Below are positions 19,480-22,400 of a DNA stretch of 64,000 nucleotides, one piece after another. The stretch is from Escherichia coli (GTDB lineage: Bacteria > Pseudomonadota > Gammaproteobacteria > Enterobacterales > Enterobacteriaceae), in the NCBI RefSeq assembly GCF_045037415.1, contig NZ_CP173438.1. One strand, 5' to 3'. The position numbers are program-made. Each line of letters opens with the position of its first letter. Position 1 is the stretch's first letter.

Positions 19480-22400
19480 TAGTTTGTACACCGTCCGGCA
19501 CTCAATCGCCAAAAGAAAAAAGCCAGCAGATAATCACTGCTGGCGTGGCGATTAACACCAATACTCAGTCACACATGATGTCCGCAAATCAGTAGTCAGA
19601 ATGACTCCCCTCCCATTGCATCAGTTCTTCAAGCATGGTTAATCGTTGTGGGACGCTTAACCAACGCAACCAGCACAACTTCGCTGTCGCGGTAAAATAG
19701 TGCTGATAAAACTGACGCATGGGGCACCTCCTTGCTTCATCGTTAGGAATTATTGACTTAATATAGGGAAAATAAAATTGCTGTCTTTTGCGCAGGAGTT
19801 CCCCTTTTATGCCATCTGCTCGTCTGCAACAACAGTTCATCCGCCTGTGGCAATGCTGCGAGGGTAAATCTCAGGAGACCACGCTCAACGAACTGGCAGC
19901 GTTACTGAGTTGCTCGCGTCGTCATATGCGCACCCTGCTCAACACCATGCAGGATCGCGGCTGGCTGACGTGGGAAGCGGAAGTCGGGCGCGGTAAACGC
20001 TCGCGTCTGACATTCCTCTATACCGGGCTGGCGCTTCAGCAACAGCGAGCGGAAGACCTGCTGGAGCAGGATCGTATCGACCAACTAGTGCAGTTGGTTG
20101 GCGACAAAGCGACTGTGCGGCAAATGCTGGTTTCTCATCTGGGCCGCAGCTTCCGCCAGGGGCGGCACATCCTGCGCGTGCTCTACTATCGTCCGTTGCG
20201 TAATCTGCTACCTGGCAGCGCATTGCGCCGTTCTGAAACCCATATCGCCCGGCAAATCTTCAGTTCGCTAACGCGCATAAATGAGGAAAATGGGGAACTG
20301 GAAGCAGACATCGCACACCACTGGCAGCAAATATCACCGCTTCACTGGCGTTTCTTTTTGCGTCCAGGAGTCCATTTTCACCATGGTCGTGAACTGGAAA
20401 TGGACGATGTGATCGCCTCTTTAAAACGAATCAATACGCTTCCGCTCTATTCGCATATTGCTGACATTGTGTCGCCGACGCCCTGGACGCTGGATATCCA
20501 TCTCACGCAACCGGACCGCTGGTTGCCGTTACTGCTGGGGCAAGTTCCGGCAATGATCCTGCCGCGCGAATGGGAAACCCTCAGTAACTTTGCCAGCCAT
20601 CCCATCGGCACCGGTCCGTATGCGGTGATCCGCAACAGCACCAATCAACTGAAAATTCAGGCATTCGATGACTTCTTCGGTTACCGGGCATTAATCGACG
20701 AAGTTAACGTCTGGGTTCTAACGGAAATTGCCGACGAGCCAGCCGGAGGGCTGATGCTGAAAGGGCCGCAGGGCGAGGAACAAGAGATTGAAAGCCGCCT
20801 GGAGGAAGGTTGCTATTATTTACTGTTCGACAACCGCACCCACCGCGGGGCGAATCAGCAAGTCAGGGACTGGGTAAGCTATGTGCTTTCTCCGACGAAT
20901 CTGGTCTATTTCGCCGAGGAACAATACCAGCAACTCTGGTTCCCGGCTTATGGACTGCTCCCCCGCTGGCACCATGCCCGCCCGACACATTGCGAAAAAC
21001 CCGCCGGGCTGGAACATCTCACCCTGACCTTTTATCAGGATCATATTGAACATCGAGTGATTGCCGGGATCATGCAGCAGATTCTGGCGAGTCACCAGGT
21101 CACGCTGGAAATCAAAGAGATCAGCTACGATCAGTGGCATGAAGGAGAGATCGAGAGCGATATCTGGCTTAACAGCGCCAACTTTACGCTGCCGCTGGAT
21201 TTTTCGCTGTTCGCGCACTTGTGCGAGGTGCCGCTACTCCAACACTGTATTCCGATCGACTGGCAAGCCGACGCCGCCCGCTGGCGCAATGGCGAAATGA
21301 ACCTGGCGAACTGGTGCCAGCAACTGGTCGCCAGCAAAGCAATGGTGCCACTTATCCACCACTGGCTGATCATTCAGGGGCAACGCAGTATGCGCGGCCT
21401 GCGCATGAACACCCTCGGCTGGTTCGATTTTAAATCAGCGTGGTTTGCACCACCGGATCCATGATTGCTGGTTGATAACAAAATCACTACACTAACGCCG
21501 TTCTCAACGGGGTGCCACGCAGCCGCGTGCGCTGAGAAAATACCCGTCGAACCTGATCCGGATAACGCCGGCGAAGGGATTTGAGGCTCCTTCTCAAGTC
21601 CTTTGCCACTCTTTTGTGAGGTGCAAAGTGTTAAAAAAATGTCTTCCCCTGCTGTTGCTGTGCACAGCGCCTGTTTTCGCTAAACCTGTTCTGACTGTTT
21701 ATACCTACGATTCCTTTGCCGCTGACTGGGGACCTGGTCCGGTAGTCAAAAAAGCCTTTGAAGCAGACTGTAATTGCGAACTGAAACTGGTGGCGCTGGA
21801 AGATGGCGTTTCGCTGCTCAACCGTCTACGGATGGAAGGCAAAAACAGCAAAGCCGATGTGGTGCTGGGGCTGGATAACAACCTGCTGGACGCCGCCAGC
21901 AAAACCGGGTTGTTTGCCAAAAGCGGCGTCGCGACAGAGGCTGTAAACGTTCCCGGCGGCTGGAAAAATGACACCTTTGTGCCGTTTGACTATGGCTATT
22001 TCGCCTTCGTCTATGACAAGAACAAACTGAAAAATCCGCCGCAAAGCCTGAAAGAACTGGTTGAGAGCGATCAAAACTGGCGGGTGATTTATGAAGATCC
22101 GCGTACCAGTACACCAGGTCTGGGTCTGTTGCTATGGATGCAAAAAGTCTATGGCGATAACGCCCCGCAAGCCTGGCAGAAACTGGCGAAGAAAACTGTC
22201 ACGGTCACTAAAGGCTGGAGCGAAGCCTACGGCCTGTTTTTAAAAGGCGAAAGCGATCTGGTACTGAGTTACACCACCTCTCCGGCTTATCACATTCTCG
22301 AAGAGAAGAAAGATAACTACGCCGCCGCGAACTTCAGCGAAGGTCACTATCTGCAGGTGGAAGTTGCCGCCCGCACCGCTGCCAGCAAGCAGCCAGAGCT

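Follow-up and report, generated by a model that had tools for sequence, protein, structure and literature searches.

Introduction

The glucose-phosphate stress regulon of Escherichia coli K-12 was described by Vanderpool and Gottesman (2004) and Sun and Vanderpool (2011) and is summarised in PMC4021124, PMC4509938 and PMC9765468. In this strain setA is expressed as an SgrR-dependent sgrS-setA transcript through read-through of the sgrS terminator (PMC4509938, PMC9765468); read-through is about 50% (PMC4509938), and the setA start lies 27 nt past the terminator (PMC9765468). Recovery of growth is reported to depend on setA only in certain stress conditions, and SetA was not identified as an exporter of aMG (PMC4021124).

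Two published comparisons bear on how this arrangement varies. Horler and Vanderpool (2009) drew setA in synteny maps (Fig. 2 of PMC2760817), and the SgrS of CFT073 and O157 is 88% identical to that of K-12 (PMC2760817). González-Alba et al. (2019, BMC Genomics 20:936; PMC6896753) listed SetA among the functions 'acquired' by the A/B1 sublineage. The restriction of setA to A/B1 is already known, and the setA-less locus described here is in an ordinary state.

Results

The SgrS terminator adjoins leuD with no setA between them

The sequence analysed, called the window below, is a 64-kb stretch of an E. coli chromosome (GCF_045037415.1, contig NZ_CP173438.1), presented in the orientation opposite to that of the K-12 map. 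The features of the locus are as follows.

14609-14757, + strand: Leu leader, upstream of leuA-D
18877..19482, + strand: leuD, 3-isopropylmalate dehydratase small subunit, last gene of leuLABCD (ORF list and annotation)
19483..19514: 32-nt spacer separating leuD from the SgrS 3' end, unaligned to K-12 (BLAST)
19504..19553: outer inverted repeat, 8-bp perfect, bracketing the terminator hairpin
19515..19741, − strand: SgrS, complete (Rfam RF00534)
19516..19544, − strand: SgrS intrinsic terminator (terminator scan, RNA fold and inverted repeat)
19589..19720, − strand: sgrT, within SgrS, intact, 43 codons (translation and annotation)
19809..21464, + strand: sgrR, intact, 551 aa, divergent from sgrS, encoding the sgrS activator
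21498-21597: TPP riboswitch, after sgrR, with thiBPQ next

In K-12 (NC_000913.3), sgrS occupies 77367-77593, setA 77621-78799 and leuD 78848-79453. Aligning window positions 18877-19850 to this region by pairwise BLAST gave two blocks, one running from sgrR through the SgrS terminator (92% identity) and the other covering leuD (95%). Between them K-12 has 1,261 nt (3594-4854 of the extracted region) and the window 39 unaligned nt (19477-19515). The K-12 interval replaced by the spacer comprises a 27-nt sgrS-setA leader, the 1,179-nt setA and a 48-nt trailer with a hairpin. Searching all six frames of the 64 kb with K-12 SetA returned no SetA-like sequence (tblastn, best E = 3.5), and no SET-family MFS gene follows the SgrS terminator at about 27 nt on the same strand, as it does in a K-12-type sgrS-setA operon. 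The first-pass annotation had placed a gene of about 1.2 kb between sgrS and leuD in K-12, and had reported its absence here, the lack of any SetA-like ORF in the window and a distance of about 30 bp from the SgrS terminator to the convergent leuD stop. The K-12 record and the searches bear out each of these statements, the gap between the leuD stop codon and the 3' end of SgrS measuring 32-33 nt.

The genes on either side are complete. leuD ends with a TAG at 19480-19482 (ORF list), is annotated as such in the SK1144 record, which is 100% identical to the window, and encodes a protein 99% identical to K-12 LeuD (tblastn). Its C-terminus reads ...QPAFMR in the window, Citrobacter and Salmonella and ...QPAFMN in K-12. 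The divergent activator gene adjoining SgrS is likewise intact, with full-length SgrR relatives, 73-97% identical, in 80 species. Over 25 kb the window is 100% identical to many clinical isolates. Its LeuC, LeuD and SgrT proteins are the same as those of CFT073, and neither of the two has espY2 between sgrR and thiB; from its sequence the source strain looks B2-like.

SgrS and SgrT are retained, with a diverged 3' end

SgrS matches the full length of its covariance model (RF00534, model 1-232 of 232, 226.2 bits, E = 1.6e-63), far above the gathering score of 37. Its ptsG-pairing core, ...CATCATGTGTGACTGAGTATTGGTGT..., is identical in alignment to those of K-12, Citrobacter and Salmonella and lies 3' of sgrT; an intrinsic terminator with its U-run comes next. 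The p-distance of the window SgrS is 0.132 to K-12 and 0.009 to an O157-like strain, values that identify it as the CFT073/O157-type allele. The sgrT translation, MRQFYQHYFTATAKLCWLRWLSVPQRLTMLEELMQWEGSHSDY, is unlike that of K-12 in its last nine residues (...EGLMQWDDRNSES in K-12) and is annotated as WP_001248768.1 in SK1144, CFT073 and IAI39.

Reverse-complementing 19515-19544 gives the terminator, gccagcagtgattatctgctggcttttttc. Its stem pairs 19537-19544 with 19522-19529 (8 bp, six of them G-C pairs, around a 7-nt loop) and is followed by T6 at 19516-19521, then C, then TTTT; the 19500-19560 interval folds at −26 kcal/mol (z = −4.95). We considered whether T6, against T8 in K-12, marks a weakened terminator tied to the loss of setA, and rejected this, as a 6-base run occurs at 68 of 82 loci, mostly in species that have setA.

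The hairpin is bracketed by the outer repeat, whose arms are AATCGCCA (19504-19511) and TGGCGATT (19546-19553) and which the minimum free energy fold of 19500-19560 lengthens to 10 pairs. This pairing would be possible only in read-through or antisense transcripts, and its significance is unproven. A role as a functional extended terminator or as a footprint of the deletion was entertained and left unproven, an 8-mer being only marginally unexpected in so short an interval. In E. albertii one arm carries an uncompensated mismatch (ATCGTCA), so the repeat is not strictly conserved.

On the opposite strand, a terminator scan of the leuD-sgrS interval found no + strand intrinsic terminator for the leu operon. 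After the SgrS hairpin the + strand reads GTGGCGATT and has no U-run. K-12 has a leuD-proximal hairpin that the window lacks, and the scan predicts no + strand terminator ahead of sgrS; it is therefore conceivable that transcription converges on the spacer from both sides.

About 40% of E. coli genomes carry the same junction

We surveyed 5,426 complete E. coli genomes with a 1.5-kb junction probe (window 18900-20400), scoring the junction as uninterrupted where one place covered at least 80% of the probe. The probe matched 5,399 of the 5,426 genomes and was uninterrupted in 2,165; in the remaining probe-matching genomes the match was split at query position 617, that is, at the SgrS terminator. 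Recurring in so many complete genomes, the junction is not a chance pattern. The K-12 setA segment was found in 3,242 genomes, in almost every case adjoining leuD and with an identity of 99% or more, and setA-like places numbered 3,243 in all (median one per genome, maximum two), three of them on plasmids. The counts of uninterrupted junctions and of setA genomes together come close to the 5,399 locus-matching genomes, so at most a handful of genomes have both. About 40% of E. coli are therefore without setA, and almost none of these carry it elsewhere.

Of the reference strains, K-12 and IAI1 carry setA, and O111, O104:H4 and O103 strains are also among the setA matches; CFT073, IAI39, 042, O157:H7 Sakai, the O157-like strain 148 and SK1144 lack it. 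We take K-12 to belong to phylogroup A, IAI1 to B1, CFT073 to B2, IAI39 to F, 042 to D and Sakai to E. The alignment to K-12 and this survey of the sgrS context across phylogroups establish that the absence of setA is real and that it is common. The first-pass annotation had attributed the missing pump to "this strain": the absence stands, and the strain-specific wording is too narrow for a lineage-wide allele. Its implication that the locus is unusual does not survive, since the same junction is standard in phylogroups B2, D, E and F and in other Escherichia species, and has been published.

Two paralogues of SetA, namely SetB (52% identity to it) and SetC (47%), were followed in the same genomes. 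setB is present in 5,413 of the 5,426, and SetB is almost certainly still encoded elsewhere in the source genome. setC is variable, being full-length in 3,722.

setA is found beside sgrS throughout the outgroups

Scanning species-representative genomes with SgrR yielded 80 loci, a set that does not include E. coli, E. fergusonii, E. marmotae or E. ruysiae. At all 76 of 76 non-Escherichia Enterobacteriaceae loci tblastn placed a SetA homologue (75-91% identical) directly upstream of sgrR, between sgrS and leuD or on the leuD side. The genera with setA beside sgrS include Citrobacter, Salmonella, Enterobacter, Klebsiella, Raoultella, Kluyvera, Leclercia, Lelliottia, Trabulsiella, Atlantibacter, Buttiauxella and others. 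Only Escherichia loci lack it: tblastn gave no SetA match at the loci of E. albertii, E. whittamii and Escherichia sp. E1V33, and Escherichia sp. MOD1-EC7003 has the gene. Both E1V33 and MOD1-EC7003 rank taxonomically as unclassified Escherichia.

The junctions of the window, the O157-like strain, E. albertii, E. whittamii and Escherichia sp. E1V33 are collinear and near-identical, with few substitutions, and that of the window matches one of the compared loci (L002) exactly. The consensus for the setA-less species is TAGTTTGTAC(A/G)CCG(T/C)CCG..CTCAATCG(C/T)CAAAAAGAAAAAAGCCAGCAG, and the window carries the spacer characteristic of this haplotype, TTTGTAC(A/G)CCG(T/C)CCG..CTCAATCG(C/T)CAAAA(A)G. 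The flanks of the setA-less allele look ancestral, with Arg at the end of LeuD and an SgrS 3' end near that of Citrobacter (7.6%, against 24.6% for K-12).

Because setA occupies the same position and orientation at 76 of 76 outgroup loci, the order sgrR / sgrS-setA / leuD predates Escherichia, and from this distribution we infer that setA beside sgrS is ancestral to the Enterobacteriaceae. The shared junction points to a single old deletion within Escherichia as its origin, and would place the setA-less state before the split of E. coli and E. albertii. In local alignments of the spacer (about 33 nt) to five setA-bearing intervals we found no setA relic, shuffles reaching the score at frequencies of 0.14-0.94, so the end-points of the deletion cannot be reconstructed. 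Two short pieces that MAFFT placed against internal setA were rejected as a relic, as they scored no better than shuffled spacers.

Divergence is concentrated around the indel

Sliding-window comparison with K-12 showed 2-4% divergence in leuC and most of sgrR and 24% in the 150-nt blocks flanking the indel, which cover the leuD 3' end on one side and the sgrS 3' third and SgrT C-terminus on the other. Against E. albertii the sgrS 3' block of the window differs by 2.5%, and the sgrS p-distances agree. The alleles on the two sides are linked: all setA-less sequences examined, the window included, combine SgrT ...MQWEGSHSDY with LeuD Arg, and every setA-bearing Escherichia sequence examined combines SgrT ...MQWDDRNSES with LeuD Asn.

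Between K-12 and Escherichia sp. MOD1-EC7003 divergence is 0-2.7% over leuD-setA-sgrS, against 5-15% in the flanks. A near-identical segment amid diverged flanks indicates that leuD-setA-sgrS was recently exchanged between the lineages by recombination. MOD1-EC7003 was probably the recipient, as its leuD is also E. coli-like, which leaves the A/B1 haplotype as either a retained polymorphism or a re-import from an unsampled lineage.

Discussion

Origin of the setA-less locus

We read the window as the setA-less haplotype of the sgrR-sgrS-leuD locus, a lineage-wide allele and not a private lesion, with a probability of roughly 0.9. An old deletion in Escherichia would have reduced the ~1.26 kb that holds setA in K-12 to a spacer of ~33-39 nt and produced the present junction, leaving sgrR, sgrS (with sgrT) and leuD intact; the setA-bearing haplotype of A/B1 (K-12, IAI1) would then be either an old polymorphism that was retained or a re-import by homologous recombination.

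The bare absence of setA, and nothing more, would also follow from a recent strain-specific deletion in a K-12-like locus or from an assembly artefact. We give this explanation almost no weight: many independent complete genomes have this junction at 100% identity and 2,165 have it uninterrupted, three other Escherichia species share it at a divergence normal between species, and the flanks of the indel differ from K-12 by about 24%, which would not be expected after recent loss from a K-12-like allele. That setA has instead moved to a chromosomal or plasmid site outside the window, a relocation for which its three plasmid occurrences among 3,243 places show that mobility is not impossible, is very unlikely at the level of the population. 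The setA genomes (3,242) and uninterrupted junctions (2,165) account for about as many genomes as match the locus (5,399), almost none have both, and no genome has more than two setA places (median one). This judgement is statistical, drawn from megablast counts over 5,426 genomes and within megablast sensitivity, the source genome itself being seen over 64 kb only.

A third alternative takes the setA-less state as primitive and setA as a new horizontal insertion into A/B1, with no earlier loss. Within E. coli, setA is confined to the A/B1 references and missing from those of B2, F, D and E, and phylogroups B2, F and D are usually placed as earlier-branching. The leuD-setA-sgrS segment is also mobile by recombination, as its 0-2.7% divergence between K-12 and MOD1-EC7003 within flanks at 5-15% shows, and setA was described as acquired by the A/B1 sublineage (PMC6896753). 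Against this, setA sits in exactly the same position and orientation at 76 of 76 non-Escherichia loci, and K-12 and Citrobacter setA diverge by 13-31% per block, sgrR by 15-29%, as for a native orthologue; a first arrival in A/B1 is accordingly improbable. If setA is ancestral at this site, a 'gain' by A/B1 must be a return of the gene following an earlier loss. The gain reading of PMC6896753 is compatible with such a loss, yet is a separate claim.

More speculatively, the sgrS-leuD interval could be a trans-species dimorphism, with two ancient haplotypes surviving across species boundaries and being reshuffled through homologous recombination. The first would combine setA with the K-12-type SgrS 3' end and SgrT C-terminus, the T8 terminator and LeuD Asn; the other would lack setA and combine the Citrobacter-like SgrS 3' end, the T6 terminator and LeuD Arg. 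The leuD-setA-sgrS segment that is near-identical in E. coli A/B1 and MOD1-EC7003 would be an example of such shuffling. We regard this as doubtful, at perhaps one chance in a few. Were it true, selection would tie the SgrS/SgrT allele to whether SetA is present or not, sugar-rich as against host-associated niches being one conceivable setting, and in the setA-less form sgrS read-through and leuD run-on would collide because the leuD terminator hairpin has been lost.

Consequences for the stress response

The functional reading of the setA-less allele is extrapolated from K-12, the window being known from its sequence alone. By analogy, SgrR would drive sgrS, and transcripts that stop at the terminator would yield an Hfq-binding SgrS and intact SgrT. 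Transcripts that read through would run antisense to the leuD 3' end and would not encode a pump. The glucose-phosphate stress response would thus presumably consist of SgrS base-pairing and SgrT without SetA. With setA absent, the read-through sgrS-setA arm of the response cannot exist here, and the first-pass statement that the response lacks a co-transcribed efflux pump agrees with the sgrS-setA transcript known from K-12 (PMC4509938, PMC9765468). The physiological cost of the absence is probably small.

The K-12 sgrS-setA operon, a model for regulated read-through of an sRNA terminator, is absent in about 40% of E. coli, and the setA-less lineages include extraintestinal pathogens (B2, D, F) and O157:H7. 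Conclusions about what SetA does during glucose-phosphate stress and about the purpose of SgrS read-through are not transferable from K-12 to these lineages. The polarity of the change is one mildly useful addition, and it qualifies the published simple 'acquisition by A/B1'.

Comparison with known systems

With the K-12 sgrR / sgrS-sgrT-setA locus the window shares a divergent sgrR, a full-length SgrS, the ptsG-pairing core, a 43-codon sgrT and an intrinsic terminator, all between the same neighbours, thiB with the TPP riboswitch at one end and leuD at the other. It differs in lacking setA together with the 27-nt leader and Shine-Dalgarno sequence, in the terminator tract (T8 in K-12, T6-C-T4 in the window), in the diverged SgrT C-terminus and sgrS 3' third (13% overall, 24% beside the indel) and in the loss of the hairpin downstream of leuD (CCCGGTCAAATGACCGGG). 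With the CFT073 / O157:H7 type it shares the SgrS allele and the setA-less locus, with SgrT WP_001248768.1 as in CFT073. CFT073 differs in carrying IS200C directly after the SgrS T-run, where the window has none, and O157:H7 Sakai in a change of the sgrT start from ATG to ATT (also reported in PMC2760817), the start being intact in the window. Our presence/absence pattern of setA across phylogroups is that of González-Alba et al. (2019; PMC6896753); whereas they describe an adaptive acquisition by A/B1, the outgroups compared here show setA at this site to be ancestral for the Enterobacteriaceae, and other Escherichia species have the setA-less junction too.

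Sequence divergence beside the setA indel

Relative to the K-12 locus (L001), the window is about 24% diverged in the 150-nt blocks flanking the setA indel and 2–4% diverged further out. Compared with L001, the diverged flanks lie at:

19415–19482, indel flank ending at the leuD stop
19515–19600, indel flank in sgrS

Because of this divergence beside the indel, both neighboring proteins differ at their ends: SgrT has the C-terminus EELMQWEGSHSDY in the window versus EGLMQWDDRNSES in K-12, and the final LeuD residue is Arg in the window and Asn in K-12.

When the setA-bearing locus of Escherichia sp. 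MOD1-EC7003 (L006) was compared with L001, leuD-setA-sgrS was 0–2.7% diverged (L006 about 3650–5950), and the flanking leuC and sgrR were 5–15% diverged. This stretch of L006 is clearly a tract of recent homologous recombination linking E. coli A/B1 with another Escherichia species.

Variation in neighboring and related genes

Across 5426 complete E. coli genomes, the setA paralogue setB was nearly universal (5413 genomes), and setC was full-length in only 3722 (query K-12 setC, L090 4954–6138). setC, which adjoins the selC island hot-spot, is thus itself variable across E. coli. Elsewhere in the window, Rfam returned an RNA match:

42737–42829, naRNA4 (CssrE, nucleoid-associated ncRNA), 64.8 bits versus a gathering score of 59.5

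The naRNA4 family is REP-derived, and this match only just exceeds the gathering score.

The type III secretion effector gene espY2 is inserted between sgrR and thiB in 042, Sakai, strain 148 and IAI39 (loci L003, L085, L086 and L087), strains of phylogroups D (042), E (Sakai and strain 148) and F (IAI39). It is absent between sgrR and the TPP riboswitch/thiB in the window (about 21465–21497), K-12, IAI1 and CFT073.

In O157:H7 Sakai (L086), the sgrT start codon, at the position equivalent to window 19718–19720, is ATT, not ATG, and sgrT is unannotated in the record; both agree with PMC2760817, which describes the SgrS of O157:H7 as not coding for SgrT.

The SgrS terminator and the 3′ end of the leu operon

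Alignment of the SgrS terminator (window 19516–19556) with those of L001 and two further loci, L012 and L021, revealed two types, each recurring across genera: the terminator region in K-12 (AAAATCACCCGCCAGCAGATTATACCTGCTGG, T8) is nearly identical to that of Salmonella, and the one in the window (TTAATCGCCACGCCAGCAGTGATTATCTGCTGGC, T6) to that of Citrobacter. A 6-base T-run was the commonest form (68 of the 82 loci counted). The hairpin is flanked by:

19504–19511 and 19546–19553, perfect 8-bp inverted repeat, AATCGCCA/TGGCGATT

In RNA folding, this repeat lengthens the predicted hairpin, giving −26 kcal/mol; in E. albertii, its conservation is not strict.

On the + strand, no intrinsic terminator was predicted for the leu operon past leuD (window 19483–19560), and the hairpin that follows leuD in K-12, CCCGGTCAAATGACCGGG, is absent from the window. 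Given these two features, leuLABCD transcripts may extend antisense into sgrS. In CFT073, an IS200C insertion lies directly past the SgrS terminator's T6 run (L084 3935–4640), whereas the short spacer that holds it there is intact in the window.
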